Shown piece by piece: positions 1 through 16,065 of a stretch of DNA of 18,754 nucleotides. The translations under genes were made by a program, and so were the position numbers. Each line of letters opens with the position of its first letter. Position 1 is the stretch's first letter. The notes under the pieces were generated by a model. It was not told where the DNA came from. It was given only the letters and a program-made list of their open reading frames with translations, and did not search any database. Source of the stretch: a virus. The DNA is taken from UHGV virus genome UHGV-0135550. One strand, 5' to 3'.

Positions 1-49
1 TTAGAGTGAAGGGCTGCTGTAATGCCTGTTACTCAGTAACTACCGCACC

Positions 50-358
50 TTACGGTAATTTCATGAAGGCAAATACCGGACAGCCCGGATGACGAGCATC
101 TTCTGTTGCTTCCAGCATTGACTCACCAAACCACTCCGTCGTGGCGCGACCGTCAGCTGCTTTGTAGTGGATCAAGTACTGGTTTTCGCCATCCGCATAC
201 TGCGCACGGGCTTTAACCTCACCCCATTCATCACTGATGCGCATCTCCACCAGTTGAGACAACTCAAACTTAAACGGAGCAGCATCAGCACCAATTACAA
301 TCGGTTTGTTTTCTGTTTTTCCATCATCGTCTCCTGATATCGAAGCCCGTCGCCGCAC
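50..358 (-). CDS. Hypothetical phage protein downstream of the lysis cassette; start uncertain (GTG at 358 or ATG at 244)
   Basis: 102-codon ORF in the track; no motif I recognise and no convincing RBS at either candidate start. Confidence 0.35.
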   Translation of the reverse strand: MRRRASISGDDDGKTENKPIVIGADAAPFKFELSQLVEMRISDEWGEVKARAQYADGENQYLIHYKAADGRATTEWFGESMLEATEDARHPGCPVFAFMKLP

Positions 359-498
359 CGGGCACTGATCAACATTTGAGTATTCGCGGCGACAGAAAGA
401 ATTTATTTTATTGAATAGCCACTAACACAGAATTTCATGCTTTCCGGACGCTGGCGCGCCCTTCATTTTTCAGCAAAATATTCCGCTATTACAGATGA

Positions 499-681
499 TC
501 AGTTCTGCAGACACTGCCGAACGCCATCGATAAGCTGGCAGACCTGAGAAGCCGTATCGAAAAGCTGGCGCGCCTTATCCAGGCTGACGCATCCCACCAA
601 TAAAAAAGGCACCAGTATCGCTACCAGTGCCCATTTCGCCGCCGTTCGCGGCATTCTGTGTGTCCAGTGTTTTCTGCTCAT
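499..681 (-). CDS. Small lipoprotein (about 60 aa), possible Rz1/o-spanin-like lysis accessory protein
   Basis: From the ATG at 679-681 (RBS-like AGGTG 5-6 nt upstream): basic N-region, hydrophobic stretch WALVAILVPFLL, lipobox LVGC; sits directly after the endolysin stop. Confidence 0.45.
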   Translation of the reverse strand: MSRKHWTHRMPRTAAKWALVAILVPFLLVGCVSLDKARQLFDTASQVCQLIDGVRQCLQN

Positions 682-695
682 AACACACCTGGTTA

Positions 696-1076
696 TCAGC
701 GTTTCAACTGAAAGTGAGGCCCGTCTTTCAGTGTTTTCCAGTCCCCACCCCATTCGATGGCAGTTCCCAGCTCTGCGGCAGCCTGCTTAAATGCCTGCGC
801 GATTTTCTCGTACAGAGGCCAGTCCCATGACACTTGGCTGCCAATGTAGGCCACAACATCCACCGCATCACCTGTAAGGTGGCGGCTGTTCATGGTCTGG
901 CTTTTCCCTGCCGCTACCAGCTGTTTCTGGCGATACTTACTGCGCAGACCTTCCGTGATACCAAAATCAACCTCCGTCAGCTCCAGCGCACGGCGAACGA
1001 CAGCAACCAGCTGTGGTTTGACGCCCTCCAGATTTTTTTCACTGCGACGGCTGAATCTGAATTTACCCGGCATCAT
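696..1076 (-). CDS. Endolysin, peptidase M15 family (VanY / L-alanyl-D-glutamate peptidase-like)
   Basis: Zinc-binding pattern SRHLTGDAVD and C-terminal WGGDWKTLKDGPHFQ typical of M15 peptidases; ATG at 1074-1076 with GAGGTG RBS; GTG at 1082 overlapping the upstream stop (GTGA) is an alternative start. Confidence 0.75.
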   Translation of the reverse strand: MMPGKFRFSRRSEKNLEGVKPQLVAVVRRALELTEVDFGITEGLRSKYRQKQLVAAGKSQTMNSRHLTGDAVDVVAYIGSQVSWDWPLYEKIAQAFKQAAAELGTAIEWGGDWKTLKDGPHFQLKR

Positions 1077-1078
1077 AT

Positions 1079-1354
1079 TCACCTCAACAATGGAAAGATT
1101 TTTGTGACGTTCCCGCGTGCGCGTATCACCAGCACGCAGAACAGCAGGTTAAAAAACACTTCCAGCCAGCCCGTTGCTAACGGGCGACCACACAGATAGC
1201 TGAGGGGCGCAAAGGCATACAGCAGCATCAGCAGCCAGGCCAGCCATGACATCAGCGGTTTGTGTCTGGAGTCACGACGACGATAAAAAAAGAGCGTCAG
1301 CACGATAACCGTGCATAACGCCACATTCAGCAATCCGGGAAGGTTACTTAACAT
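1079..1354 (-). CDS. Membrane protein of the lysis cassette (holin/antiholin-like, 2-3 predicted TM helices)
   Basis: Start at ATG 1352-1354 with strong GGAGGAGG RBS; hydrophobic segments LLNVALCTVIVLTLFF, WLAWLLMLLYAFAPL, VFFNLLFCVLVI; lies between holin and endolysin. Confidence 0.5.
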   Translation of the reverse strand: MLSNLPGLLNVALCTVIVLTLFFYRRRDSRHKPLMSWLAWLLMLLYAFAPLSYLCGRPLATGWLEVFFNLLFCVLVIRARGNVTKIFPLLR

Positions 1355-1736
1355 TGCCGCCTCCTCCACCCCGCAGGCGGGAGAACACACCGGACACCAG
1401 TGATGCAATATCCTGCTGGTGGATGAACGACAGAATCTTCACCGACACCACCGATACCAGCACCGCACACAGCGCATCTGCCGATGTACCGTCATACCCT
1501 GTTTTTGATGCAATCCAGGCTGACAGCACGCGCGCCCCCAGCACGCCGACGATAAACGACACCAAAAAATGCGCCACCACGCGCCAGACTGAAATCTTCT
1601 GCGGCATCGTTGCCACAAATAACGCCCCGGCGAACGCACCAAACACAATCCCGAAATCCGTTCCGGTAAACAGCCCGAATACCGTCGCCCCGCCGAGCGC
1701 CGCAGCCGTGCCGGAACCGGATAAGGGTTCAGACAT
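1344..1736 (-). CDS. Putative holin (about 130 aa, three hydrophobic helices)
   Basis: Start MSEPLSG at 1734-1736 with AGGAGA RBS; Gly/Ala-rich TM segments; position immediately upstream of the endolysin module. Confidence 0.55.
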   Translation of the reverse strand: MSEPLSGSGTAAALGGATVFGLFTGTDFGIVFGAFAGALFVATMPQKISVWRVVAHFLVSFIVGVLGARVLSAWIASKTGYDGTSADALCAVLVSVVSVKILSFIHQQDIASLVSGVFSRLRGGGGGNVK

Positions 1737-1824
1737 ACTTTTTTCTCCTGTAAATAAAAAAGGGCCACCAGCGGCCCGTAAAAACACCCCGTCAAAGGCA
1801 CCCGCAGATGCCTTTTGTGTGGTG

Positions 1825-1977
1825 TTATTCAGATTTACGCAGTAAAGGCCGGAGCACGACCAGCGCCATCGCCACCAGCACACCATCTGCCAGCACCGAC
1901 ATCAGCCGTCCGGTGAAATCCACCGCCACTACCAGAAACAGCAGGATGGCAGCCAGCACAAGGCGCGCACTTTTCAC
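1825..1977 (-). CDS. Small hydrophobic protein (50 aa, GTG start), translationally coupled to the upstream TerB-like gene
   Basis: GTG at 1975-1977 overlaps the TerB-like stop TGA (1974-1976); product VKSARLVLAAILLFLVVAVDFTGRLMSVLADGVLVAMALVVLRPLLRKSE has two hydrophobic stretches; below the 60-aa cutoff of the ORF track. Confidence 0.3.
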   Translation of the reverse strand: MKSARLVLAAILLFLVVAVDFTGRLMSVLADGVLVAMALVVLRPLLRKSE

Positions 1978-2399
1978 AGGTACTGCTCCAGCGGTAGCTG
2001 AAGCGCCTGCGCAATTTTCTTGAGCTGTGTTTCTTCATCCGGACCAATGCCATCCTGGTCAGCGATATCCAGACACAGGCACAGCACATTAACTGCGTCA
2101 TCAGTACCTGCCACGTCAGCCAGCTGACGAAGGGCTTCAGCATTGGCAGAGCGCGGCGACGCTTCATAACGGGCGCGGATATTTGCACTCATTTGTGCAA
2201 TCTCACCGGAGAACGGCGCAAAGGCAGGAAGTGCTGCAATGGTTTTCTCCAGTACCGCGACTTCTTTCGCGTCACAGGTGTCGTCAGCATATGCAATGGA
2301 ATACGCGCCCCAGACGGTCGCCTCCACTGCGTCGCGGTTCTCCATCTTCTTCACTTCGGTAATGGCCTTGCGGGTTTTCTTTTTGAAAATACCAAACAT
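1974..2399 (-). CDS. TerB-like (tellurite-resistance TerB domain) protein
   Basis: 141 aa; C-terminal pattern DIADQDGIGPDEETQLKKIAQALQLP resembles the TerB signature (DGxxDxxExxxLxxIAxxLxL); AGGA RBS 9 nt upstream of the ATG at 2397-2399. Confidence 0.55.
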   Translation of the reverse strand: MFGIFKKKTRKAITEVKKMENRDAVEATVWGAYSIAYADDTCDAKEVAVLEKTIAALPAFAPFSGEIAQMSANIRARYEASPRSANAEALRQLADVAGTDDAVNVLCLCLDIADQDGIGPDEETQLKKIAQALQLPLEQYL

Positions 2400-2569
2400 C
2401 GTGACTTTTCCTTTTAGTGGGTGAGCCTGCGCCCGGGGGTGACCAGCCCACAGAGAAAGTCACACTGACCATCCCGTAAGCTCACCCCTGAAAGGCTCTG
2501 TGGTTTTTGATGTGCGCCGGGCGTGGCGCGGATATAAAAAAGGCCCGCCGTAGCGAGTCATGAAAAAAT

Positions 2570-2600
2570 GAATAAAAAAAACCGCCCGGTAGAGGCGGTT
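2570..2600 (-). terminator. Rho-independent terminator (minus strand) between the tRNA cluster and the TerB-like gene
   Basis: Perfect 7-bp stem AACCGCC / GGCGGTT (2580-2586 / 2594-2600), 7-nt loop; minus-strand reading is followed by a run of 9 T then ATTCATTTTTT. Confidence 0.6.
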
Positions 2601-2867
2601 AAGGATGTATTTCCAGGTTTTGCTTAATATATGATTAATCTCAATGTCATGGTGTTATTTACAACACCAGAATGATGCATCACCGACCCTCCCAGGAAAT
2701 ATAAAATCTCCACCGAAAATGCACCATTCTGCTGCCGTAAAAAAATCAGCACTGCGGCTACACCCGACCTCAAATCATAGCCAGAGAACAGAATGTTTTT
2801 TAACAATCTACCCCCACGTAATAAAAAAATACGTCAGTGCCGTTACTATAAGGCGTATTTCAAATGT

Positions 2868-2942
<75 letters not shown>

Positions 2943-2945
2943 ATA

Positions 2946-3021
<76 letters not shown>

Positions 3022-3023
3022 AA

Positions 3024-3100
3024 TGGACCGTCACCGGAGACTCGAACCCCGCGCCATCAACTTCGAAGGCTGATGCTCTATCCGGATGAGCTAGTGACGG
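3024..3100 (-). tRNA. tRNA-Arg (anticodon UCG)
   Basis: Minus strand CCGTCACTAGCTCATCCGGATAGAGCATCAGCCTTCGAAGTTGATGGCGCGGGGTTCGAGTCTCCGGTGACGGTCCA: 7-bp acceptor stem (C1-G72), D-loop with GG, anticodon loop CTTCGAA, T-loop TTCGAGT, encoded CCA. Confidence 0.7.
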
Positions 3101-3224
3101 TTTTATTGCCACATCCGTAACGACAGCCAGCGGGAATAATATGCATTCAGAATCAGCCGCCTTAGCTAATTGTGCAACCATCTGCTCTTTGCAAGTGCAC
3201 TTAACGTCCTGCGCCACTTTTCAG

Positions 3225-3253
3225 GCATAAAAAACCCGCTCATCGGCGGGTTT
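3225..3253 (-). terminator. Rho-independent terminator (minus strand) at the left boundary of the AT-rich island
   Basis: Stem AAACCCGC / GCGGGTTT (3232-3239 / 3246-3253), loop TCATCG; on the minus strand the stem is followed by TTTTATGCC extending the U-tract. Confidence 0.5.
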
Positions 3254-3298
3254 AAGCTGTGTGGCGTAGTAACCACTCTTAACACGATACAATACTTT

Positions 3299-3327
3299 TT
3301 GCGTACGCGTTAAGATTTTTTTATAAT
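3299..3327 (+). promoter_or_regulatory. Sigma70-like promoter for the large island ORF
   Basis: -35 TTGCGT (3299-3304), 17-bp spacer, perfect -10 TATAAT (3322-3327), about 70 nt upstream of the ATG at 3397. Confidence 0.4.
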
Positions 3328-3396
3328 TACTTACCTTTCTCACACCAAATGTAAAAGCAATATTTTTTGATAATCCTGTTGTTTAAAGGGAATAGC

Positions 3397-6300
3397 ATGA
3401 AATCAATTGTACACTTATCCGACTTACACTTATCAGACTCAAAAAAATATGGTTTTCACTGGAAGAAAGCCAAAGAACTGGTCACAGTATTAGTTAATGA
3501 TATACATTCATTAAGTAAAGAAAACAACCTCCAGATAGATGCCATTTTTTTTACTGGGGATTTAACGTTTTCTGGAACCAAAGAGCAATTTCAACTATTT
3601 GATGAACATTTCCTCTCTCCACTTATTCAAAAGCTGAACATCAGTAAAAAAAACATTTTTATAACCCCAGGCAATCATGATGTGGACAGAAGTAAAGTTC
3701 ATCCACTTGAAAAACAACTGCGAACTGGTTCGGACGAAAATTTCATATCATCATACTTTGATATGATAAATAATGGAAAGTATTCATGGGAACGTCTCTA
3801 CGAGTACTGTGAATATAATAAAACAATATTAGATCATCATTCTGATGTTGAACAATCTGGACGCATGATTACATGCTTTAAAGTAACAAACAAATTATAC
3901 GTCGTTAGCGTAAATAGCGCATGGTTAGCTATGGATGATAATGATATTGGTAACTTACGAATTACCCAAAAGCAAATTGATTTTATCAATCGTGCCAAAA
4001 TACCTTCTGATGCAAAAATAATATTATTATGCCATCATCCTTTAGATTGGTTGAATAAGAATGATCGTGACATTTTTTCAACATTTATTGAAAAAAAAGT
4101 TTCAATGTTCTTTTTTGGTCATATGCATGATTTTAAACAAAAACTAGAATCTAGTTTTTGTGAAAACATCACCCTCTTTTTGCAAGCAGGAACTTTGGAT
4201 ACTAGTGAAAATGTATCAGGCTATTCATTAATAAATTTTAATAGTTCAAATGTCATATCAGACGGAAGAATTTTTTATAGAAAATATAATAAAGAAAAAA
4301 CATGCTATGAACCATGGGAAGAAAGAGGAAATGGTGGTGTTTTTGATTTCACCACTGAGAAAACTCTAACTTTTGACTCTGAAAAATTTGCAACATTATC
4401 TAATGAGATTCTAGAGAAAACTGATAAGGATTTATTAATTAACATTGGAATCTCTGATGAAAAGAAAAAAAGTCTAAGAACTCTATTTACTGAACCAAAT
4501 TTCCTTGAATTTGCTCTTGGAGCCATGCCTTCTATGGAGATTAAGTCCACACAAGAATTACTAGAAGGACGAAACAACCTTGTGATTGTAGGAAACCATA
4601 GCTCAGGTAAAACATCTCTTTTAAAATACCTATTCATTAAGAGTCTAGAAAAACAAGCCAGCAAAGACTTCAGTAACTTTGCATTTTTCTTAGATTTAAA
4701 TGCAATTGAATTAAATAGCTTAAATACAATTGTAAGCGCATTATGTACACAATATTTCAATGCAGATTCGACCACATCTTTTGAAGAAAAAATTAAAAAA
4801 ATGTTACATGAGGGAAGATGTGTTATATATATTGATAATCTGGACAATATAAATACAAAAGAACAATGTGTAATTTCTGATTTTTTTATAAAATTCAAAG
4901 AATGTAGATTTATCGTAACTGCTGGCTATAATAATTCAGATCTGGTAGTTAAAATATTATCAGATGAAAGTAAAGCTAAATTTCATGCAATTGCTATAGG
5001 TTCATTACGCAGATCTAATGTTCGCGATATTGTATCAAGATGGCACGACACAACATCACAAAATATAATATATAAAGAAATCACGCGAACAATCAACAAT
5101 TCGCAACTTCCTCATAATTATTTTACATACTCAATGCTTTTAGCTATTTATGAAGTTGATCATGACGTTAAAGGAATATTAAGTGAGTCTGATATTATAG
5201 AAAACTTCATAGAAATTTTGCTTCGTAAACATTTTATGGATACTCCGCCTAATAAGCCACAATTTAAAGAACTTCGACATTTTCTTGGATATTTAGGATT
5301 TACATTATTCAAAAACAAATGTAATTTTATTTCAAATAATGAACTTCTGCAGACTGCAATAATTTTCAATAGAGATACCATGCATGATTATCAAGTAGAA
5401 GACTATATAAAACCATTAAAAGAATGTGGAATATTGAAAGAAGAGCTATGTAATGTGATTTTCTCGCAGCCTTGCTTTTTATACTATTCCATCGCTTATT
5501 TCATGAAGCATAACGAAGAGCTAAAGAAAGAAATTTTATCCGATAATAATTACCTACATCTACATAAAGTTATTGAATACTATTCATCGCAGAACTCATC
5601 TAGTCTTGATTTATTATACTTACTTAAAAAGAAGACTAATGCAATCAAATCTTCTTTATCTGAACGAATGCTCGAAGATAAGGGAATAAATATTGAAGAT
5701 ATAAAGATTGAAGACTCTAATACTTTCTCTATTTTAGATATGGTATCAACCCAAGATGATTTCGAAAAAAAGATAGAATCACTCCGTGCAGATAGAGAAA
5801 AAGATGACGCGCGACTAGATGAATTATCACCTTTATCTGATAAAGATAAAAAAGCTAATATATCAAATGTTAGAGCTGAAGGTAATAATAATCTGTTACA
5901 TGATCTTATTAACACTTTATCTCTTTATGCAAGGGTATTCCGTAGTACTGAATTATCTATGGAAAGAGAAAATATATTAAATATATTTAATGACCTTGTA
6001 AAGGGTTATGTTTTTTACATGAAAGCGTCACTAGTACTAATGGATGATTCATTTGTTCTTCCAGTAATACTCCCTGCATTAGAAAAGAAAATGCAAGAGG
6101 ATAAATTAACCGATAACGAAAGGCAACGAGTTTTTGAAATGTTTAAACTAGTATTGTCTTTAGTTCGCTCAATGATCCCAAATAACATACAGTTTATTAT
6201 GAGCAATGACTTAAGCTCGAAAAAACCACGTATTGCAAACATTATTACTGAATCAAAAGACTCAAATAGCAATCCTGTAGAAAAGGCTATTTTAACTTTC

Positions 6301-6549
6301 ACCTTAATGGATATTAAAGATGAAATGGTTATACAATTAGCTAACGATTTAGCAAAGATACAAAACAAAGTTGTTCAAGAATCTCTTTTCTTCAAGATTA
6401 ATCAAATTATAACAAGTAACTATGATTTAAAAAGAACTGAAGAAGAAGCATTGAAAGAGTTAGCAAAAAACATTGGCATTAAAAGAAAATTAATTCTCAC
6501 ACCCAAGATTAGTGATGCCTTTAATACGTTAAACCGCATAGGACATTAA
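3397..6549 (+). CDS. Large multidomain protein: N-terminal calcineurin-like metallophosphoesterase, central NACHT/STAND-like P-loop NTPase, C-terminal helical domain; candidate antiphage defense protein
   Basis: Metallophosphoesterase motifs DxH (D9-L-H11), GD (54-55), GNHD (92-95), HH (213-214), GHMH (241-244); Walker A GNHSSGKT (399-406); Walker B-like VIYIDNLD (about 476-483) followed by FIVTAG; ATG at 3397 with AAAGGGA RBS (TTG at 3367 is the ORF-track start). Confidence 0.8.
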   Translation: MKSIVHLSDLHLSDSKKYGFHWKKAKELVTVLVNDIHSLSKENNLQIDAIFFTGDLTFSGTKEQFQLFDEHFLSPLIQKLNISKKNIFITPGNHDVDRSKVHPLEKQLRTGSDENFISSYFDMINNGKYSWERLYEYCEYNKTILDHHSDVEQSGRMITCFKVTNKLYVVSVNSAWLAMDDNDIGNLRITQKQIDFINRAKIPSDAKIILLCHHPLDWLNKNDRDIFSTFIEKKVSMFFFGHMHDFKQKLESSFCENITLFLQAGTLDTSENVSGYSLINFNSSNVISDGRIFYRKYNKEKTCYEPWEERGNGGVFDFTTEKTLTFDSEKFATLSNEILEKTDKDLLINIGISDEKKKSLRTLFTEPNFLEFALGAMPSMEIKSTQELLEGRNNLVIVGNHSSGKTSLLKYLFIKSLEKQASKDFSNFAFFLDLNAIELNSLNTIVSALCTQYFNADSTTSFEEKIKKMLHEGRCVIYIDNLDNINTKEQCVISDFFIKFKECRFIVTAGYNNSDLVVKILSDESKAKFHAIAIGSLRRSNVRDIVSRWHDTTSQNIIYKEITRTINNSQLPHNYFTYSMLLAIYEVDHDVKGILSESDIIENFIEILLRKHFMDTPPNKPQFKELRHFLGYLGFTLFKNKCNFISNNELLQTAIIFNRDTMHDYQVEDYIKPLKECGILKEELCNVIFSQPCFLYYSIAYFMKHNEELKKEILSDNNYLHLHKVIEYYSSQNSSSLDLLYLLKKKTNAIKSSLSERMLEDKGINIEDIKIEDSNTFSILDMVSTQDDFEKKIESLRADREKDDARLDELSPLSDKDKKANISNVRAEGNNNLLHDLINTLSLYARVFRSTELSMERENILNIFNDLVKGYVFYMKASLVLMDDSFVLPVILPALEKKMQEDKLTDNERQRVFEMFKLVLSLVRSMIPNNIQFIMSNDLSSKKPRIANIITESKDSNSNPVEKAILTFTLMDIKDEMVIQLANDLAKIQNKVVQESLFFKINQIITSNYDLKRTEEEALKELAKNIGIKRKLILTPKISDAFNTLNRIGH

Positions 6550-6575
6550 AATGCCACTTTTTTGATATAATTAAA

Positions 6576-6603
6576 AACCACCCGTAACAGGGTGGTTCTC
6601 TAC
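6576..6603. terminator. Hairpin terminator between the convergent large ORF and small ORF (strong on minus strand, possible on plus)
   Basis: Perfect 8-bp stem AACCACCC / GGGTGGTT (6576-6583 / 6590-6597), loop GTAACA; minus-strand reading is followed by TTTTTAATTAT; sits 27 nt after the large ORF stop. Confidence 0.6.
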
Positions 6604-6652
6604 CTCTGCTGCAATATATCTCAAATAATTAAAACGAGCAGGAATTTACCTA

Positions 6653-6832
6653 TCAAAAAACTTGACTACCGGAATTCGAATTTAAAACCCCATTAGTATT
6701 TTTAGGTTTTGTCATTTTCAAATTAGCTTTCATACTACATGCCATAAAATATTGGGTAAGAAAAATGGTATTTAAATGATTCCAAGAAGTAGTTTTATCA
6801 TAAAAATAATTAATTCTTTGTTTCTTATTCAT
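6653..6832 (-). CDS. Small AT-rich ORF (59 aa) of unknown function, convergent with the large island gene
   Basis: ATG at 6830-6832 preceded by a strong RBS (AAGGAG, 6-nt spacing); no motif I recognise; followed by the 6576-6597 terminator. Confidence 0.35.
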   Translation of the reverse strand: MNKKQRINYFYDKTTSWNHLNTIFLTQYFMACSMKANLKMTKPKNTNGVLNSNSGSQVF

Positions 6833-6907
6833 GCACACTCCTTAGTAAAATATAGAAATAAAAGACAAATCACTTATAAATGTCATGTTAAAAAAATTCT
6901 CATCATG

Positions 6908-6936
6908 ATTATTGATGAGTGATTTTATATTATCAA
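6908..6936 (-). promoter_or_regulatory. Candidate sigma70 promoter downstream of Q (possible late promoter PR'-like, or promoter of the small ORF)
   Basis: On the minus strand: -35 TTGATA (6931-6936), 17-bp spacer, -10 AATAAT (6908-6913); AT-rich context so chance matches are likely. Confidence 0.3.
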
Positions 6937-7063
6937 AAAATTATATTATTAACAACTCTTGTTTATTACTCAACCAATACCAAAATCATTAGCCACGCAT
7001 ATATATTTTCAAACATATAAAAACAACACACAATATAAAATCCAGCCACAAAAACTCGCACTT

Positions 7064-7408
7064 CTATTTTATGAAATAAAAACACCCTTCAATAAAACCT
7101 AAAGCAGTTTGCAATTCCTTTCTAATCGTACCGTCCGAACATTTTCGCCTCTTCGCAATAGTTCTAAGCGAAATACCAATAACAAAATGAGCTATAATTA
7201 GCTCATATTCCTCTGGTTTATACTTACACAGGCGGGCAACACAGCCGTCTATCATGATGCCTTCATCATCATCACACTGAAGGCGTATTTTTTTACCATG
7301 AGGTAAAAGCCCCTTAAAGCCTGCTGCTATCGGCTGCCAGTCCACACCACTGTTATCTGCTGCAGCCCATGCTCCCCAGCGGTCCAAAACTTCATACATA
7401 TCACGCAT
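7064..7408 (-). CDS. Late-gene antitermination protein Q (small Q family, non-lambda type)
   Basis: N-terminal LDRWGAWAA motif and Cys-rich core (QCDDDEGIMIDGC ... KCSDG) as I recall for phage antiterminator Q family; ATG at 7406-7408 with GGAGAAA RBS (TTG at 7423 is the ORF-track start). Confidence 0.75.
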   Translation of the reverse strand: MRDMYEVLDRWGAWAAADNSGVDWQPIAAGFKGLLPHGKKIRLQCDDDEGIMIDGCVARLCKYKPEEYELIIAHFVIGISLRTIAKRRKCSDGTIRKELQTALGFIEGCFYFIK

Positions 7409-7425
7409 CAACTTTCTCCACAAAA

Positions 7426-8421
7426 TCAGGCCAGCACACCAATTGCCAGTGCACGATCGATAAAACGAAATATCAGCTCCAGCTGGGAGCCATACTTCTC
7501 TTCAAATGCCACGGTATCCGCATGCAGCTCGTCGTGATGCTTTCTGCACAAAGGCAACACAAAGAGGTCATGCGCTTTTGTACCCATTCCCCCCTGACCG
7601 TGGCCTATCAGGTGGTGGGGATCATCAGCAAGCTTTCCACAACATGCACACGGCTGTGTCTTAACCCAGCGCGTGTACTTTTCATTAACCCAACGGCGAC
7701 GTTTGGGGCGTAACATAAAAGACTCCGGCGACTCCGGATCCACTTCCAGCGACAGCACCTTTTTCGCTTTATCCTGGATGATGCTGGTGGCAGGAACCGA
7801 AGGAACAAGGTCACTTTCCCGGGTGACAGACGGCACAATAGGCTTCGGTAATCTCAGTGCCTTACGGGCTGCACTTTCCGGTAAGGCATCCGCCAGGTCA
7901 TTACGAACCAGCCACCAGCACAGTTCCGGCATTGTCACAACGTGACTATCATCAAAACCGAGATCACGGCGCACAACAGACAACACCCAGCGGGCACAGT
8001 TATCCGTTGCCATTGATTCCAGCCGTTCCGTGAACTGATCGCGCAGCTGGTTATCACAGTGCCAGCACAGACGGATTGCGCCCGGAGCGTGTCGCATTGT
8101 GGTCATGTTCTCGCTGTGCCAGTCGGAATGAGGCCACTGACAGCCCTTTTCACGAAGTAACCAGCTTTCAAGACATTCCACGCCACCAGCACGACGGATC
8201 ACTGCCTCATTGCGGAACACGGCCCGAACGGCAGGATCATCCGCCAGCGGTTGTGATGCCGCGGGAACGGCACCACTGGCGAAAGATGAATAACGTTCCG
8301 GCTCAGGCTCCAGCAGTACACGCCCCTGCATAAACAGGGGCATCAGCTCTGAACCTGGTCTGAACAATACGATCCCCATACGCGGGGCAATTTCAGGGGT
8401 CAGTAGTGCTCTCACGGTCAC
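7426..8421 (-). CDS. DUF968-like phage protein with C-terminal Cys/His-rich (HNH-like) motif; start uncertain
   Basis: C-terminal CACCGKLADDPHHLIGHGQGG ... LCRKHHDELH; nin-region position; GTG start overlapping the KilA-N stop, no clean RBS. Confidence 0.55.
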   Translation of the reverse strand: MTVRALLTPEIAPRMGIVLFRPGSELMPLFMQGRVLLEPEPERYSSFASGAVPAASQPLADDPAVRAVFRNEAVIRRAGGVECLESWLLREKGCQWPHSDWHSENMTTMRHAPGAIRLCWHCDNQLRDQFTERLESMATDNCARWVLSVVRRDLGFDDSHVVTMPELCWWLVRNDLADALPESAARKALRLPKPIVPSVTRESDLVPSVPATSIIQDKAKKVLSLEVDPESPESFMLRPKRRRWVNEKYTRWVKTQPCACCGKLADDPHHLIGHGQGGMGTKAHDLFVLPLCRKHHDELHADTVAFEEKYGSQLELIFRFIDRALAIGVLA

Positions 8422-8422
8422 C

Positions 8423-9232
8423 TCAATGAACGGTATCGAGCAGCTTTAACAGCTCAGGGAATCGGGATTCGAAGAAATGCGGCTGCGTCTCGCGCGGATT
8501 TGCGGGACTGGTGATGTTCTTGCCGAACATGCAGCCTTTCGCTGTCAGCGACCAGAATTTTTTGATGTTGTTAATCGCGGTACGGCTGTATCGTTCGCGT
8601 TGTTCAACGATCCCCAGCTTCACCATCTGGTGATATGCCTGATTAGCCGTCAGGCGGATACCATACTGCTTCAGCAGTGCACTCAGTGACAGCGTAGGAC
8701 GGCTTGAGCCATCGAGTGCATCAGCAGGAGCATCAATGGCATAGCGCGGTGCCAGATTCGGTAAGCCAACAGCCTCCTGAAGTTTCTGACAGGCTCCAAG
8801 CACTGATGAGTTAGACAGGTTTAATTCCCGGCGCATAAAGTCCAGCAGAATCACACCAGCCTGCATCTTGTCAGCAGCCTGCCCGGATAATTTTTCCGGT
8901 GCGCTGGTTACCATATCGAAAGTACGGATCACCTTCAGATGGAATGACGGGCTGATCCACATTGCATAGGCATACACCAGTTCCTTGCAGACATACGTTC
9001 CCCGTTCATTTCCCCCATGAATCACACTCACCGGGTCAACACCCAAATTCTGGGTGTTGGTCAATTCATGAACAAGTTCAACAGTTTGTTGGCTGGAAAG
9101 AAACTTTCCCGGCTCCTTGGTTCTGGCATTTGCACCAGATGCTACTGCTGCGCGATGCAGATCGTTCAGGCTGTAACGCCCATAAGCATCACGACGAACT
9201 TCAATACCATCAATGACCATCAGATTATTCAT
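8423..9232 (-). CDS. KilA-N domain protein
   Basis: N-terminal MVIDGIEVRRDAYGRYSLNDLHRAA resembles the KilA-N DNA-binding domain; ATG at 9230-9232 with AGGAGA RBS. Confidence 0.65.
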   Translation of the reverse strand: MNNLMVIDGIEVRRDAYGRYSLNDLHRAAVASGANARTKEPGKFLSSQQTVELVHELTNTQNLGVDPVSVIHGGNERGTYVCKELVYAYAMWISPSFHLKVIRTFDMVTSAPEKLSGQAADKMQAGVILLDFMRRELNLSNSSVLGACQKLQEAVGLPNLAPRYAIDAPADALDGSSRPTLSLSALLKQYGIRLTANQAYHQMVKLGIVEQRERYSRTAINNIKKFWSLTAKGCMFGKNITSPANPRETQPHFFESRFPELLKLLDTVH

Positions 9233-9251
9233 ACTTCGTTTCTCCTCTTAA

Positions 9252-9641
9252 TCAGGCGGCTGCACCCGCCGGTTTCTCATACTTACTGATAGTGATCTCG
9301 ACCTTCCCTTTCGGGATAACCGGTCCCCACTCCACCAGCATTCTTTTCACCTGTCTGTCGTCTTCCCACACACCCGCGTGGGTCAGGGCGTCAAACAGAG
9401 CCTTGTTATAGTTGTCCAGATCGCGGATCCGGTTATCCGGAGGAAACAACACGATCTCCACTGAAGCAGGTGCCGACGTTGGTTTCGGCAGACGACGTAA
9501 CTGCTCAACTATTGCTGCGCACGCCGCGCTCTGAAATTTTCGCCCCGCCTCGCTTATCAGGCTCTTACCAGCAAATGCCCCTTTGTTGGGGTGTCGCCAG
9601 TACGTGTTCACGCTGGGCGGAAAAGGCAGGATCAGCTTCAT
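9252..9641 (-). CDS. rusA: Holliday-junction resolvase RusA
   Basis: 129 aa with PPSVNTYW, RDLDNYNKALFDALTHAGVWEDDRQV matching the RusA family pattern; ATGA overlap with the upstream stop. Confidence 0.85.
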   Translation of the reverse strand: MKLILPFPPSVNTYWRHPNKGAFAGKSLISEAGRKFQSAACAAIVEQLRRLPKPTSAPASVEIVLFPPDNRIRDLDNYNKALFDALTHAGVWEDDRQVKRMLVEWGPVIPKGKVEITISKYEKPAGAAA

Positions 9642-9964
9642 ACTTTCAGGCCCCTCTCATGTAACCAGTGGGCTGCACGCAGCCTGGCGTTTTCCTCACC
9701 GGCAAGCAGTGAGCGGATAATCCCGACCGCCTCGCTGTCGTCGTCCTTCACCACGGTATGAAGCGTGATCCCCCGGGCCACACCACGCTTTATCGTGATG
9801 ACGCCTTTTTTCTCCAGTGCGCGAAGATGCTCCACCGCTGCATTCACTGAACGGTATCCCAGCATGGTTGCCACCTCCTGATTGGTTGGCGGGAAGCCAC
9901 GTTCTTTCTGATAAGAAATCAGCATATCCAGCACCTGCTGCTGGCATTGAGTTAACGTCATCAT
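9638..9964 (-). CDS. LexA-like N-terminal DNA-binding domain protein lacking the S24 peptidase domain
   Basis: 108 aa; QQQVLDMLISYQKERGFPPTNQEVATMLGYRSVNAAVEHLRALEKKGVI parallels the LexA winged-helix domain; no Ser/Lys peptidase region follows. Confidence 0.6.
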   Translation of the reverse strand: MMTLTQCQQQVLDMLISYQKERGFPPTNQEVATMLGYRSVNAAVEHLRALEKKGVITIKRGVARGITLHTVVKDDDSEAVGIIRSLLAGEENARLRAAHWLHERGLKV

Positions 9965-10614
9965 GCCGCCATCTCCCTGACCAGTTTTTCCGCCTGCTGG
10001 CGAACCTGCACCAGAAAGGCTTCACCACATGCCTCAAGTTCATCGCGCCCGATGTAGCTGATTGCCGGTCCCTTCCAGGTCTTGTCGAAAACAGCAATAG
10101 CACCAGCGAAGAAAGCGCCTGTCGGCACCTGCTTCTCATCCTTCGGGATAAACCAGGCAGGCAGTTCAAAACCAATACGCCCGCGAATAAAAGCAATATG
10201 GTCCGCATCTTCCGGCCACCACACTTCGCTGGTGGCAGCTTTGATCAGGAAAACATAGCGCCCACCCTTATCACGCATGGCACTGGCATGTTTCATGATG
10301 TAACGCATGCCGGTGATGTATTGCCCCTCATGCTGACTGGCGCGGCTGTATGGGGGATTGCCAAAGGCAGCACCTTTAAGCTCCGCAAGACGTTCTGACC
10401 AGTCATGCGCCAGCGCGTTGTCTTCCGCCGTGTAATACGCGGCACATTTGGCGTTATCACCGTCAGTGAACAGATCCAGAACAAACGGACCAAACAAGGT
10501 GTTAATTCCCCAGAAAATGTTGTCCGGCGTGCGCCACTGATCGCCCACTTCCTTCAGTTCATGGGCTGGTTTGTTCCGCAGTTCTACCAGCGCCTGGCAA
10601 TATTTATTACTCAT
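9961..10614 (-). CDS. Phage Dam-like DNA N6-adenine methyltransferase
   Basis: NPPY catalytic motif (FGNPPYSRAS); ATG at 10612-10614 (ORF-track start at 10659 is an upstream extension). Confidence 0.75.
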   Translation of the reverse strand: MSNKYCQALVELRNKPAHELKEVGDQWRTPDNIFWGINTLFGPFVLDLFTDGDNAKCAAYYTAEDNALAHDWSERLAELKGAAFGNPPYSRASQHEGQYITGMRYIMKHASAMRDKGGRYVFLIKAATSEVWWPEDADHIAFIRGRIGFELPAWFIPKDEKQVPTGAFFAGAIAVFDKTWKGPAISYIGRDELEACGEAFLVQVRQQAEKLVREMAA

Positions 10615-10706
10615 TAAGCCCCCACGTAAAAAGCATCCGCAATGTCTCCGGAAGTACACCCCGGATGGGCTTCAATGAATTTCTGAACTTCATTCAAAAG
10701 ACTCAT
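10614..10706 (-). CDS. Possible 30-aa micro-ORF translationally coupled to the methyltransferase
   Basis: ATG at 10704-10706, two nt after the upstream gene stop, GGGGGTGA just 5' of it; stop TAA overlaps the methyltransferase ATG (TAATG). Product MSLLNEVQKFIEAHPGCTSGDIADAFYVGA. Confidence 0.25.
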   Translation of the reverse strand: MSLLNEVQKFIEAHPGCTSGDIADAFYVGA

Positions 10707-10708
10707 GA

Positions 10709-11515
10709 TCACCCCCTGAATCCTTCCGGGATCTGGCTGTAGTCCACGTTGTCGTAACTGGCTTTGAAGTACGGGTCCTCGCGTCTGACTGCAGATACCG
10801 CAGGAACTTCCCAGGATTCTTCGAAATGACGATCCGGGCCAAAGAACGTGACAGCCTGTTTCACAAATTGTGTGCCGCTGTTACCCATCGCAGATACCCA
10901 GCCCGCGTAGCGTTTCACACCTTCCAGCATGGTTTCGGGGTTTACCCCCTCATTCAAACGGGCTTTCCAGGCTTTGAAGGCTGCAGATTTTGAATTGCCA
11001 CCAGCACGTTTGGGATAGGCCAGCCATGCCTGCTCAAACTCCGGAGAGTATTCCGGTCGGTTTGAACGAACTCGCACAGACTCATCAGCAGATGCACCAA
11101 CAGCTATTGGTTCATTGACTGGTTCAAAAGAGTGACTGGTTCTGGGTGAATCTCCTGCACTACCCCCTGGTGCAACTCCTGCACTACCTGGTGAATTTGC
11201 TGCACCAGATAGTGAATTATTTGCACTACCCCCTAGTGAATCTCCTGCACCATCCAGATGAAGGAGATAGATATTACTTGAGTTACCTTTTTCACCTTTC
11301 CGGGTGACTTTTTTTACCAGCCCGGACTCACAAAGGGCCGCAATATGATTCATCACAGAACGTTTGCTAATCTCGCACTGGTCAGCAATATGCTGGTAGC
11401 TGGGCCAGCACTCACCCTGATCGCTGGCATTATCAGCCAGCTTGATCAGAACCAGTTTTCGCAATGGATTACCCACTCGAATTTTCATCGCTTTAACCAT
11501 CAGCTCCATACTCAT
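10709..11515 (-). CDS. Replication initiator (O-like): N-terminal HTH domain, low-complexity linker encoded by the iterons, DnaT-like C-terminal domain
   Basis: N-terminal KLVLIKLADNASDQGECWPSYQHIADQCEISKRSVMNHIAALCESGLV (HTH); C-terminal EFEQAWLAYPKR ... SQIPEGFRG resembles the E. coli DnaT C-terminus as I recall it; GGAGGTG RBS; ATGA overlap with upstream gene. Confidence 0.7.
   Translation of the reverse strand: MSMELMVKAMKIRVGNPLRKLVLIKLADNASDQGECWPSYQHIADQCEISKRSVMNHIAALCESGLVKKVTRKGEKGNSSNIYLLHLDGAGDSLGGSANNSLSGAANSPGSAGVAPGGSAGDSPRTSHSFEPVNEPIAVGASADESVRVRSNRPEYSPEFEQAWLAYPKRAGGNSKSAAFKAWKARLNEGVNPETMLEGVKRYAGWVSAMGNSGTQFVKQAVTFFGPDRHFEESWEVPAVSAVRREDPYFKASYDNVDYSQIPEGFRG
11145..11255. 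repeat. Five tandem imperfect 21-24 bp direct repeats inside the O-like gene (candidate origin iterons)
   Basis: GTGAATCTCCTGCACTACCCCCT / GGTGCAACTCCTGCACTACCT / GGTGAATTTGCTGCACCAGAT / AGTGAATTATTTGCACTACCCCCT / AGTGAATCTCCTGCACCATCC, in frame, encoding the Gly/Ser/Ala/Pro-rich linker. Confidence 0.6.
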
Positions 11516-11748
11516 GCTGCACCTCCGAGATGCTTCATGTTTTTTCCGGAGCGAAAGGCTATAAGCGGCATACTGACGCGGTAATTACGGCCCAGCGGTT
11601 CACAAACCACCTTCTGACATTCACGGTCAACCAGGCTGACACGTAGAACATGCCCTGCAGGCGTGGTGTACCACTGCCCAACTGTAGGAATTGATGTTTT
11701 TTTACGCTGAAGCAAACGGCAAATATTGAGGATCAACGGATTAAGCAT
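11512..11748 (-). CDS. Hypothetical small protein (78 aa) in the early-right operon
   Basis: ATG at 11746-11748 with GGAGGG RBS; ATGA overlap with the O-like start downstream; no recognisable motif. Confidence 0.45.
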   Translation of the reverse strand: MLNPLILNICRLLQRKKTSIPTVGQWYTTPAGHVLRVSLVDRECQKVVCEPLGRNYRVSMPLIAFRSGKNMKHLGGAA

Positions 11749-12577
11749 GACGATGCCCTCCGCTGATATTCAGGAGACGGTGAATATGAAAATTAGCCTT
11801 ATCCGCCAAACGGATACGTTCAGCCTGCAAGTTAAGAAGGGTTTCTACCAGAACCTGATGCGCCTGCGGATCCGAAAGAGTTACCTTGCGCAGAGCACGT
11901 AGTGCAGTTGTTACATAACTGAGTTTATGTAAGTCTTCATCATTCAGACGAGTGAGGGCTGGGACAGTAGCCATGATGGCAGCCTCCGTATGCAATGGAT
12001 AACTTCCACCACCGGAAACGCCAATTTCGCTGGTGGTGAACTGAGCAGGGTTGGCGTAACCGGCGCATACGGAAACCGGCGCACCTTTCGGTGCCCCCAC
12101 CCAGCCCACCATAATTTGGGTATAGCTGAGTTGTAGCAACAAAAAAGACGCTAACGCGCCAATTGTCGCCGTATGCAATTCCAGGACGCCAATCCCGGCA
12201 CCCGCTTTATAAGGTGCCTGAACAGTGTAACGTCCCGGAATGGCAGAATCAATGTGCTGGTGGTCCTTCACACTCAACAAAATCACGCCTGAATTTCCAC
12301 AAAGGACTAAAGCACTCATGCGGGTAGTCTTTGCGAAGATAGATAACGCGCTGTGTTTCTGGCTCCCAACGAATAACATGGACATAAAGCCCTCTTCCGT
12401 CACGAAACCAGCGGTTAAGTTCCTGCACAACTCGCCCCCCACAGTCAGGTAAAGTTCTCTGTGGTTACTTACAGCCAGGTGATTTGGTAATCTGCATTCA
12501 TGCCGTAACAACAGGTGTGCAGCGACACTGACCACCAGCTGTTGCGACAAACGGTTATTTGCCGTTAAACTGTTCAT
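11741..12577 (-). CDS. Hypothetical protein (278 aa) in the early-right operon
   Basis: ATG at 12575-12577 with GGAGAAA RBS; ATGA overlap with the upstream gene stop and 8-nt overlap with the downstream gene; no recognisable motif. Confidence 0.45.
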   Translation of the reverse strand: MNSLTANNRLSQQLVVSVAAHLLLRHECRLPNHLAVSNHRELYLTVGGELCRNLTAGFVTEEGFMSMLFVGSQKHSALSIFAKTTRMSALVLCGNSGVILLSVKDHQHIDSAIPGRYTVQAPYKAGAGIGVLELHTATIGALASFLLLQLSYTQIMVGWVGAPKGAPVSVCAGYANPAQFTTSEIGVSGGGSYPLHTEAAIMATVPALTRLNDEDLHKLSYVTTALRALRKVTLSDPQAHQVLVETLLNLQAERIRLADKANFHIHRLLNISGGHRHA

Positions 12578-13137
12578 GCGTTAGTTTCTCCACAGACACA
12601 AAACGCCACGACGCCCGGAGCTGCACACTCGCGGGCGTCACTCTTTTCTGGAGCGCAAAAGATTTTGTAGACCAGTGCTGCATGCTCCTGGAGCTTCGAA
12701 ATTGACAGATACAACTCATCATTAATTGCTGTCTGCTCGTGTGGCTCCACGACCCCATCTTCGATTGCCGAACGAATCTGCTTTGAGTAATTCCCGATCT
12801 GTTCGATGACTTCCAGCAGGCGCTGGTTTATATCGGCGTTCTCTACTTCCTCAATTTCAGGAAGCGATACAAACACCCCACCAGCAGACTGTGCGACAGC
12901 ATCCGCAATGTAGTGAGTGCCAGCCGCGCGCTGTAAAATCATTGCCCATCCCAGCGGGAAAATCTGATCGCCATCTGCACGAAGGCGGTTGAATAAAGCG
13001 TTTTCTGTTACATCGAGCCAGTCAGCCGCTTCAGCGTAACCACCCGGCAACGCCGCGATAGTTTTTCTGACAGCTTTCACGTACCACTCAGGCTGTTTTT
13101 CTACTTTCCAGTGATGCTTACCCACGGTTAGCCTCAT
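12574..13137 (-). CDS. Early regulatory-region protein in the cII position (possibly YdaT-like)
   Basis: 187-codon ORF immediately downstream of the Cro-like gene; assignment by position only; weak RBS. Confidence 0.4.
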   Translation of the reverse strand: MRLTVGKHHWKVEKQPEWYVKAVRKTIAALPGGYAEAADWLDVTENALFNRLRADGDQIFPLGWAMILQRAAGTHYIADAVAQSAGGVFVSLPEIEEVENADINQRLLEVIEQIGNYSKQIRSAIEDGVVEPHEQTAINDELYLSISKLQEHAALVYKIFCAPEKSDARECAAPGVVAFCVCGETNA

Positions 13138-13168
13138 CGTTCTGTGGTTAAAAATTGAAGGTGTTCTG

Positions 13169-13369
13169 TTAATCTTTCGGATAGATATCCGGTCTTAAGT
13201 CAGATTTCGTAATTGCACCTGACGTGCATTGCTCAAGTTTTTTAGCCAGCACAAAACTGGCTTTTTTATAACCATTGAAAACCAGCCGTAAGTAGCCTGG
13301 TGTTGAGCCAACTTTTCCGGCCAACTCGCCCTGCTGTTCTTTGGTTAAAGAGTCCCAATACGCTTTCAT
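13169..13369 (-). CDS. Cro-like HTH repressor (YdaS-like family), 66 aa
   Basis: ATG at 13367-13369 with GGAGG upstream; LAGKVGSTPGYLRLVFNGYKKASFVLAKKLEQCTSGAITKSDLRPDI resembles Cro/YdaS-type HTH proteins; divergent from the CI-like gene. Confidence 0.65.
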   Translation of the reverse strand: MKAYWDSLTKEQQGELAGKVGSTPGYLRLVFNGYKKASFVLAKKLEQCTSGAITKSDLRPDIYPKD

Positions 13370-13459
13370 ACAATATGTACCTCCGGTATACATATTACAT
13401 GATTTAGATGAACCTTCAAGGTACTTGTACCTTATCGGTACAAAGGTTTTAATTTCTTT
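13370..13459. promoter_or_regulatory. Divergent immunity control region (PR-like / PRM-like promoters and operators)
   Basis: Operator-like ATGTAC-N7-ATACAT at 13375-13393; palindrome AGGTAC-TT-GTACCT at 13418-13431; candidate PRM -35 TTGTAC (13425-13430) and -10 TTTAAT (13448-13453) implying a near-leaderless CI mRNA. Confidence 0.5.
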
Positions 13460-14134
13460 ATGAAAACAGTCCATGACATCCGGCGGTCTAACGCCAGAAA
13501 ACTGAGAGATGGTGTTGGCGGGAATTCTTCCTTTGCCACCATGATTGATCGCGAGCCAACCCAGACCAGCAGGTTTATGGGAGATGGTGCTACTAAAAAT
13601 ATCGGTGACAGCATGGCGCGGCACATCGAAAAATGTTTCGACCTGCCTGTCGGATGGCTTGATCAAGAACACCAGACCACGAACATCACAAAAAAACCTG
13701 ATGTTTCAATCACTAACAAACAAATAACGTTAGTCCCTGTCATATCATGGGTACAGGCCGGAGCATGGAAAGAAGTTGGCTATTCTGAGGTTGATTTGAG
13801 CACAGCAGAAACTTACCCCTGCCCTGTACCCTGTGGCGAAATGACTTATATCTTGCGGGTGATTGGTGATTCAATGATTGATGAGTACCGCCCGGGAGAC
13901 ATGATTTTTGTTGATCCTGAAGTCCCTGCCTGCCACGGTGACGACGTTATTGCATTGATGCACGATACAGGCGAAACCACCTTCAAGCGGTTGATAGAAG
14001 ATGGAACACAGCGTTACCTCAAAGCATTAAACCCAAACTGGCCTGAACCTTACATTAAGATCAACGGTAATTGCTCTATAATTGGTACAGTGATTTTCTC
14101 AGGAAAACCAAGAAGATACATAATAAAGGCCTAA
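13460..14134 (+). CDS. CI-like repressor (HTH plus LexA/S24 peptidase-like C-terminal domain)
   Basis: N-terminal HTH-like region; C-terminal GDSMIDEYRPGDMIFVD ... TTFKRL consistent with an S24 autopeptidase Ser/Lys dyad; divergent from Cro-like gene. Confidence 0.8.
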   Translation: MKTVHDIRRSNARKLRDGVGGNSSFATMIDREPTQTSRFMGDGATKNIGDSMARHIEKCFDLPVGWLDQEHQTTNITKKPDVSITNKQITLVPVISWVQAGAWKEVGYSEVDLSTAETYPCPVPCGEMTYILRVIGDSMIDEYRPGDMIFVDPEVPACHGDDVIALMHDTGETTFKRLIEDGTQRYLKALNPNWPEPYIKINGNCSIIGTVIFSGKPRRYIIKA

Positions 14135-14145
14135 TCAATATTTAT

Positions 14146-14168
14146 AACCTGCTTCGGCAGGTTTTTTT
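14146..14168 (+). terminator. Rho-independent terminator after the CI-like gene
   Basis: Stem AACCTGC / GCAGGTT with TTCG loop, followed by TTTTTTT (through 14168). Confidence 0.75.
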
Positions 14169-14172
14169 ATAC

Positions 14173-14206
14173 TTGACAATGTACCCATGAGATACATAAT
14201 GTATCT
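14173..14206 (+). promoter_or_regulatory. PL-like early-left promoter with overlapping operators
   Basis: Perfect -35 TTGACA (14173-14178), 16/17-bp spacer, -10 CATAAT/ATAATG (14195-14201); operator ATGTAC-N7-ATACAT (14179-14197) in the spacer; second palindrome AGATACAT-A-ATGTATCT (14190-14206) over the -10. Confidence 0.55.
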
Positions 14207-16053: not shown

Positions 16054-16065
16054 TTTCATTACTGC

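Follow-up and report, generated by a model that had tools for sequence, protein, structure and literature searches.

In lambdoid prophages sharing one type of the antiterminator Q, the gap separating the Q gene from the late promoter pR' serves as a hotspot for prophage defence genes, in which the same flanks enclose different cargo, about half of the module types matching known or candidate defence systems. We describe here one such prophage, represented by the virus genome UHGV-0135550 (18,754 nucleotides; this whole stretch is called the window below), and the AT-rich island that it carries in this gap. The island holds a plus-strand gene for a protein of 1050 amino acids (aa), in which a metallophosphoesterase is predicted to be joined to a NACHT/STAND-type NTPase. 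We consider it likely that this island is a horizontally acquired defence cassette, housed in a recombination-prone slot between the stop codon of Q and pR'. As judged from homology and conservation, pR' very probably lies at 3277-3313, so that late transcription would bypass the island. The features are collected in Table 1.

The island differs from its surroundings in composition. Its GC content is 0.295 (3328-7079), as compared with 0.522 in the left flank (1-3200) and 0.49 in the right flank (7080-18754). Within it, the values are 0.300 for the large open reading frame (ORF, 3397-6549) and 0.27 for 6550-7063, and the GC content at third codon positions of the large ORF is 0.23 vs. 0.53-0.55 for the neighboring genes encoding DUF968 and KilA-N proteins. 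A two-change-point likelihood fit on GC places the edges at 3279 and 7226. Homology to prophages that have a near-identical Q and another cargo ends at 7080-7086 and restarts at 3325-3327. Since homology with these differently loaded relatives breaks at these points, the insert corresponds to about 3328-7079. Its right edge falls within the last 5-7 codons of Q and, when Q proteins from loci with different cargo are aligned, they diverge after ...GFI(E/D/N)G. Because these last codons change with the cargo, the recombination junction is placed within the Q reading frame itself. The whole island is present in 16 of 5426 complete Escherichia coli genomes, with at least 99.2% identity, and a megablast search of a phage collection gave 0 records with the complete island. 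An earlier note, made from the sequence alone, had described an AT-rich cargo island between Q and the late genes, lower in GC than both flanks, with the large ORF on the plus strand and Q and the lysis genes on the minus strand; it had proposed to define the boundaries with relatives devoid of the island. The GC calculation, the homology breaks in these relatives (at about 3327 and 7080-7086) and the gene positions all agree with this description. We have high confidence that the island is cargo and that its gene is a defence gene of the STAND type. As a side observation, the C-terminal ends of Q vary by cargo type, for example FIEGCFYFIK, FINGVMYMLK, FIDGCLSFFIY..., and FIDGVLRMI.

The position of the late promoter is the second element of the argument. 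Q modifies only RNA polymerase initiating at its cognate pR', and in lambda the Q-binding element is located between the -35 and -10 boxes. In loci having the same Q and different cargo, the stretch 3201-3327 (about 125 bp) is the sole common DNA between Q and the late genes. In a Stx2a phage without cargo, whose Q is 57% identical, the conserved block starts at the Q stop codon. The block 3201-3327 aligns column by column with the pR' (TTTACG-16-TATCAT), the qut site, and the terminator annotated in GenBank for phage 933W. In 933W, PR' was mapped by differential RNA sequencing (dRNA-seq) 258 nt upstream of the 3' end found by Term-seq at tR' (Sy et al., PMC7547250). This distance places the 933W start on an A homologous to window position 3277.

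The block is also found together with Q in other genomes. When one genome from each species was scanned for the 17-mer TTTTTGCGTACGCGTTA, 67 matches were returned, about 70 being expected by chance according to our own arithmetic, and only the 45 matches with adjacent block homology and a Q gene were kept. Each of these 45 Enterobacterales loci has, within 8 kb, the remainder of the block as well as a gene for this Q type (58-93% identity). In the window, the 17-mer element occurs once. The 43 unique sequences give the minus-strand consensus TAACGCGTACGCAAAAA.tat.gTAnnnTG.TAAGAGTgGTtaC. The motif TAAGAGT is conserved across these relatives, as are T1, A2, and T6 of the -10 box, the bases that carry most information in a sigma-70 -10. 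A search by eye for a strong, conserved pR' -35 gave nothing convincing. The promoter spacer contains a palindrome that reads GCGTACGC in this prophage; at this place, 933W has ACGATCGT and the L007 type has GCGGTCCGC. As its sequence changes with the Q type, which is expected of such an element, it is a candidate for the Q-binding element. Hence, the block 3226-3313 would carry the parts of a lambdoid Q/pR'/qut switch, with a Q-type-specific element, a pause-like element, a terminator, and a cognate Q. Starting near 3277-3280 on the minus strand, late transcription would head leftwards to the tRNA and lysis genes, without passing over the island. The block was also considered as a homolog of the StxS small RNA and this was rejected, since it corresponds to pR' and the first ~50 nt only. 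StxS-S is made of the 3' 74 nt of the 258-nt transcript and ends at a second terminator (PMC7547250), which is absent from the window. No Rfam family was found for the pR' leader, the Rfam matches in the window being limited to the tRNAs, C4, and isrK.

The earlier note had Q-modified late transcription running antisense through the ORF. This would suppose that pR' lies directly downstream of Q, that the Q-modified polymerase silences the cargo gene during lytic growth, and that hairpins bracket the island. The annotated pR' of 933W, which overlaps the 3' end of Q, is a precedent for such a location, and several minus-strand promoter-like hexamer pairs are found in the AT-rich region 6900-7020. 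However, promoter-like sites are no commoner there than in shuffled sequence (19 found in the AT-rich stretch vs. 23.5 expected, hence no enrichment). Moreover, nothing is conserved past 7080 among phages with near-identical Q, even though Q needs a specific binding element, a promoter, and a pause site, and the convergent cargo gene of locus L002 reaches over the stop codon of Q. Finally, the conserved block homologous to the 933W pR' is found beyond the cargo, as seen from Q, in all the loci examined; here it sits on the side of the tRNA and lysis genes and points away from the ORF. A late promoter beside Q is therefore highly improbable, and the location of pR' at the left border of the island is retained in what follows.

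The gap itself was surveyed in 44 measurable loci having this Q type, mostly from different Enterobacterales species. In 42 of them it holds 0.6-3.7 kb with one to three ORFs oriented opposite to Q; the other two are nearly empty. The cargo has a GC content of 0.28-0.45, as compared with 0.39-0.57 in adjacent DNA. Its proteins form 30 clusters, and, in Pfam and PADLOC searches, roughly one module type in two has a counterpart among known or candidate defence families. Represented are BstA (E 5e-116), PD-Lambda-5 (A and B), a HEPN-partnered DUF262 (GmrSD_N) protein of NsnA/PD-T4-2_A type, PDC-M53A/B (found in Shigella phage SfII and elsewhere), PDC-M66A/B, an ATPase like AriA/NsnB together with a partner, a metallo-beta-lactamase-fold LmuA-like protein in a three-gene module, and NA37/YejK proteins with a transmembrane (TM) partner in ten species. 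The NA37/YejK pairs have the architecture of the validated system DS-1, with distant similarity (E 1e-10). The same layout is found in the sequenced phages mEp460 and SfII and in Stx1a-converting phages (Q 94% identical). In several loci, the cargo extends to the Q stop codon, one such arrangement being that of SfII.

Several observations made during this survey concern particular loci. In phage Stx1_499 (LC567825.1; L008, 1115-3360), three opposite-strand hypothetical genes occupy 2.1 kb between Q and the pR' block. In Stx1a phages, the pR' block precedes stx1 and the toxin promoter is thus split from Q by unannotated slot cargo. Serratia grimesii NBRC 13537 (L032, 4112-4451) has three tandem pR'/Q-element blocks in 340 nt and a nearly empty gap. 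Other slots contain unannotated pairs, made of a soluble protein of 270-350 aa followed by a protein of 145-195 aa with several predicted membrane helices. They belong to clusters 3/4 (L010, L018, L026, L034, L052, and L071), 7/8 (L041, L057, and L075), 11/12 (L005 and L077), and 18/19 (L044). These pairs have no Pfam match above the family cut-off and no PADLOC match; their layout is like that of PDC-M53A/B and they are candidate new defence modules.

The cargo gene corresponds to the RefSeq product WP_114443772.1, with a possible alternative ORF start at 3367 and a Shine-Dalgarno-like AAGGGA 7 nt upstream of the ATG. Pfam recognizes a Metallophos domain at residues 3-245 (E 1e-11) and a NACHT domain at residues 395-551, the latter with 28.5 bits, barely over the family threshold of 26.7 bits. 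A match to nSTAND_NTPase4 at residues 644-697, a helical module, is under the family cut-off, and the C-terminal third of the protein is helical in the AlphaFold 2 (AF2) model. Over its whole length, the protein matches the PADLOC profile PDC-S60 (E 2e-97, 325 bits), which aligns residues 4-1029 with positions 3-1001 of 1027. A database search yielded 461 homologs, about 1030-1060 aa long, most of which share the architecture; some come from outside Proteobacteria. In an alignment of 65 homologs, D9, H11, D55, N93, H94, H213, H214, H242, and H244 are invariant; this set comprises all the metal-binding and catalytic metallophosphoesterase residues of the protein. The predicted local distance difference test (pLDDT) score of the AF2 model is 86.8 for the full-length protein and 91.3 for residues 1-345. 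In Foldseek searches, the NTPase region matches NLRP3, NOD2, and NLRC4 (E ~1e-9), as well as NAIP5 and Avs4 (8dgf), and the N-terminal domain matches SMPDL3B, acid sphingomyelinase, Lmo2642, and Rv0805. A sequence search of the protein against PDB chains returned nothing.

The closest validated system is related to this protein at a distance. DS-8 (MNAC, WP_032203427.1) is a single-protein metallophosphatase-NACHT anti-phage system of E. coli, described with DefensePredictor (Science 2026, PMC13092281). The substitutions D52A, N84A, and K375A each abolish its protection against phage, and its metallophosphatase was likened to SMPDL3A/B, with the HHpred match 5KAR in Table S8 (PMC13092281). With BLASTP, the cargo protein is collinear with DS-8 and shows 23% identity (E 5e-15, 431 columns), in a comparison that covers the first 399 aa of DS-8 as given in Table S8 (PMC13092281), that is, its N-terminal 40%. 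D55, N93, and the Walker A lysine of the cargo protein align with D52, N84, and K375 of DS-8, the Walker A motif GNHSSGKTSLLK being aligned to GDEFCGKSTILK, which contains K375. The two systems have in common a three-part single-gene architecture with collinear metallophosphoesterase motifs and Walker A, an N-terminal domain whose neighbors are SMPDL3 and acid sphingomyelinase, and an AT-rich accessory gene in E. coli. They differ in length (1014 aa for DS-8 vs. 1050 aa). The cargo protein is best read as a predicted distant member of the DS-8/PDC-S60 STAND immune class, and would add such a member to this newly validated metallophosphatase-NACHT class. The earlier suggestion of a lysogenic-conversion gene is upheld in a broad sense, with an anti-phage function predicted from the homology to PDC-S60 and DS-8.

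By analogy with DS-8 and with Avs and NLR proteins, a mode of action can be proposed. The N-terminal metallophosphoesterase, which has the fold of acid sphingomyelinase, SMPDL3, and cyclic-nucleotide phosphodiesterases, would be the effector, the central NACHT-type P-loop NTPase would be the switch, and the helical C-terminal region would probably sense the invading phage. Binding of a phage cue would cause an NTP-dependent oligomerization that would turn on the phosphodiesterase, so that the infection would be aborted or blocked. The order of the parts, with the effector at the N-terminus, the STAND NTPase in the middle, and the sensor at the C-terminus, would be that of Avs and bNACHT proteins, and the fold matches Avs4 and animal NLRs. 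The likeness to Avs4 is at the level of the fold only, since no Avs model in PADLOC is matched by the cargo protein at E <= 0.01. A metallophosphoesterase is not known among the effectors of classical Avs1-4.

Homologs of the gene are found in other settings. In Citrobacter, three different prophages have a 58% identical homolog at the equivalent place, flanked by holin and Q, and more distant homologs in Pectobacterium and Burkholderia are lone chromosomal genes. Judging from these slot copies and lone chromosomal homologs, the gene is a self-contained mobile single-gene unit. The Citrobacter homolog is flanked by a 58-aa ORF at a relative position equivalent to that of the 59-aa ORF of the island (WP_039268256.1). 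The latter has no Pfam match, and the idea that it is part of the system was dropped, given the absence of sequence similarity between the two small ORFs. Shortened versions of the large protein also exist. A 784-aa form, 100% identical and N-terminally shortened, lacks the metallophosphoesterase domain and represents 376 database sequences. In E. coli CB209, only window 3231-4625 is retained, and truncated copies appear to be common.

Could the ORF have a non-immune role, as an accessory nucleotide or lipid phosphodiesterase with a regulatory ATPase, or be an inactive hitch-hiking remnant? The candidate status of PDC-S60 and the low identity to DS-8 leave room for this reading, as do the shortened form common in databases and the genome carrying a truncated copy. 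However, the frame is intact in the 16 genomes with the island, and, in a family with members in several phyla, no catalytic or P-loop residue varies. Known immune receptors show the same succession of effector, STAND NTPase, and sensor, and validated defence systems occupy the same slot in other phages. A non-immune or inactive ORF is thus quite improbable and an immune function is preferred.

The expression of the cargo gene may depend on a promoter at the border of the slot. A plus-strand TTGCGT-17-TATAAT had been reported at 3299-3327 in the earlier note and is present exactly there. Its -10 is perfect and its -35 matches the consensus at 3 of 6 positions, which accounts for its having been missed by a generic promoter scan. 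TTGCGT is a portion of the conserved pR' spacer. In 32 of the 43 unique relatives, which carry unrelated cargo, a TAnnnT hexamer with at least 4 of 6 matches is found 16-18 nt past TTGCGT (a rough estimate of the chance of such a hexamer is about 26%), and in 32 of 43 the spacing is 17 nt. The two cargo-free relatives examined, L007 and 933W, show no hexamer of this kind when inspected by eye. The idea of autonomous expression can be kept: the promoter is plausible and probably drives the gene alone. However, it is not brought by the island but belongs to the slot border, since its -35 is in the pR' spacer and its -10 keeps its position where the cargo is unrelated. The gene would probably be read rightwards from this promoter in the lysogen, with its weak -35 and perfect -10. 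The cargo promoter and pR' are arranged back to back, each -35 lying in the spacer of the other and the starts being about 56 bp apart. Given the footprints of RNA polymerase, the two are unlikely to be occupied simultaneously. From the sequence, we have moderate confidence in the activity of the plus-strand promoter and in its competition with pR'. In the searchable literature, we found no description of a Q-pR' slot with an overlapping border promoter, although an earlier description is possible.

Transcription arriving from either side would meet hairpins. The one at 3232-3253 is homologous to the terminator hairpin annotated after the 933W pR', and also to a hairpin in locus L004, located after a lambda-type Q and TTGCAT-17-TAAGAT, then AACGAT. 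The late transcript would start near 3277 and proceed leftwards via this hairpin and its U6 tract to the three tRNAs and the lysis genes. On the other side, the hairpin at 6576-6597 has a U5 tail on the minus strand, typical of a good terminator, and a weak UUCUCU on the plus strand; its z-score is between -4.6 and -5.1 and 0 of 200 shuffled sequences fold equally well. A generic terminator scan missed both this hairpin and that at 3232-3253. The two hairpins had been viewed as brackets of the island. Both exist at these places, but the U-tracts are on the minus strand; hence, the hairpins would end leftward transcription rather than bracket the plus-strand gene. The early transcript from Q converges on the cargo gene and would first meet the hairpins at 6919-6899 and 6597-6576, which would halt it unless it is antiterminated.

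Delayed-early transcripts of lambdoid phages are commonly antiterminated, as by lambda N. An early transcript derived from pR and antiterminated in this way could pass both hairpins and run antisense through the defence gene after induction, which would lower the amount of a potentially suicidal immune protein. This idea is compatible with the defence-cassette explanation. It draws on this general knowledge of N and on the convergence of Q and the cargo gene, 515 nt apart here and in the same layout in 42 of the 44 loci. The two minus-strand terminator hairpins between Q and the gene, however, suggest insulation rather than read-through, and in several loci, including that of the sequenced phage SfII, the cargo reaches the Q stop codon. 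No N-like antiterminator or nut site turned up in the window, in analyses that included no search aimed at them. On balance, we find antisense control by the early transcript unlikely.

Returning to the defence cassette and its bypassing late transcript, several points weigh against them. The two promoters and all the terminators were recognized solely from sequence, homology, and conservation. The putative -35 of pR' fits poorly (TTAACG, spacer of 18 nt), and neither promoter was picked up in the generic scan. The covariation of the palindrome with the Q type rests on three Q types, compared by eye in one alignment. In 933W, the homologous first hairpin lets most transcripts through, the mapped 3' end being at +258. 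An antiterminated early transcript could still run antisense into the gene in lytic growth. As for the protein, PDC-S60 is a computational phage defence candidate and not a validated system, and a literature search on "PDC-S60" returned no papers. With 23% identity over the N-terminal 40% of DS-8, the activity of DS-8 is not simply transferable.

The arrangement can be compared with known locations of accessory genes in prophages. Like stx-type morons, the island is found between Q and the lysis genes of a lambdoid prophage. However, stx is encoded by the late strand, beyond both pR' and tR' in the downstream direction, and is activated by Q (PMC7547250), whereas the island lies upstream of pR' and its gene is on the opposite strand. 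As the cargo gene is on the strand opposite to late transcription and upstream of the 933W-pR'-like block, it does not have the position of a Q-dependent late-operon moron. The hotspots of P2 and P4 (Rousset et al. 2022, PMC9122126; Vassallo et al. 2022, PMC9519451) resemble the Q-pR' slot in having a fixed position and interchangeable, unrelated low-GC defence cassettes. In contrast to them, the slot belongs to lambdoid phages of one Q type and extends from the Q stop codon to pR'; its cargo is always opposite to Q and would be served by a border promoter overlapping pR'.

Thus, the defence gene would stand outside the late operon, as a divergent neighbor of the late promoter, and this testable layout replaces the story of antisense silencing. 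Together, a Q of this type and the element TAACGCGTACGCAAAAA...TAnnnT..TAAGAGTGG form a compact, readily recognized landmark that brackets cassettes of 1-4 kb across Enterobacterales, including Shiga-toxin-1 phages and Shigella phage SfII. The slot is therefore a practical site for mining immune genes, its cassette types beyond those that match known or candidate systems being unannotated, and would offer a natural system to study how prophages shield their lytic cycle from their own abortive-infection genes. A bolder proposal is that the gap is a dedicated dock for immune genes, wired to the lysis decision by mutually exclusive overlapping promoters. In that case, Q bound to the palindrome GCGTACGC, which includes the cargo -35, would exclude occupancy of the cargo promoter. 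Any cassette would be on in the lysogen and down when Q fires, so that the phage would be spared its own abortive-infection cargo, and the unannotated pairs of a soluble and a small multi-TM protein would be new defence systems. We consider this proposal rather unlikely.

Table 1. Features of the Q-pR' region of UHGV-0135550 (positions in the window).
Feature	Position	Strand	Basis and remarks
tRNA-Gly(TCC), tRNA-Thr(TGT), tRNA-Arg(TCG)	2868-3100	-	ARAGORN, Rfam, RefSeq
Putative terminator hairpin with U6, first after pR'	3226-3253	-	Fold -13.1 kcal/mol, z = -3.0; U6 on minus strand only
Probable pR' and candidate Q-binding element	3275-3313	-	Homology to 933W pR'/qut, conservation
Putative pR' -35, TTAACG	3313-3308	-	
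Palindrome GCGTACGC	3301-3308	-	
Putative pR' -10, TATCGT	3289-3284	-	
Probable pR' start	near 3277-3280	-	
Pause-like element AAGAGT	3280-3275	-	Resembles lambda sigma-dependent pause element AACGAT
Probable cargo promoter TTGCGT-17-TATAAT	3299-3327	+	Read from sequence; divergent from and overlapping pR'
Cargo island, low-GC insert in Q-pR' gap	3328-7079		GC and homology edges
Predicted metallophosphoesterase-NACHT/STAND NTPase gene, 1050 aa	3397-6549	+	Pfam, PADLOC, DS-8 homology, AF2
Putative hairpin common to convergent transcripts	6576-6597		-17.0 kcal/mol (-), -14.4 kcal/mol (+)
Small ORF, 59 aa, WP_039268256.1	6653-6832	-	RefSeq annotation; reality uncertain
Second terminator-like hairpin, between Q and small ORF	6899-6919		Terminator scan, both strands; minus tail AATTTTTTTA
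Antiterminator Q, 114 aa	7064-7408	-	Pfam Phage_antitermQ, E 1.6e-44

The window matches, at 100% identity, part of a lambdoid prophage carried on the E. coli EC71 chromosome (NZ_CP085622.1). From high to low positions, the minus strand carries replication and nin-type genes, the KilA-N and DUF968 genes, Q, which is a distant relative of Q21 (PDB 6P18), and the three tRNAs. Genes for a TerB-family protein, a DUF3927 protein, holins, and an M15 endolysin come next, and the prophage continues with the packaging genes, beyond the left end of the window. From this layout, the three tRNAs would be the opening genes of the late transcript. The TerB-family gene (141 aa) and the small RefSeq DUF3927-family gene (1974-2472, minus strand), between the tRNAs and the holins, fall within the same predicted transcript and may be late-operon morons.

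Two observations concern regions remote from the island. On the minus strand at 12029-12217, Rfam identifies a C4 antisense RNA (80.7 bits) adjoining an isrK Hfq-binding RNA (61.2 bits), both within the RefSeq coding sequence (CDS) named "Rha family phage regulatory protein" (about 11733-12626). This region resembles the C4/ant immunity module of the P1/P7 type, and the N-terminus of the Rha CDS may be over-called. Finally, an AAA-family ATPase and a RloB-family protein are encoded immediately outside the prophage integrase (L001, 26240-27901), the second gene and most of the first lying just past the right end of the window; they resemble another defence-type pair, located by the attachment site.

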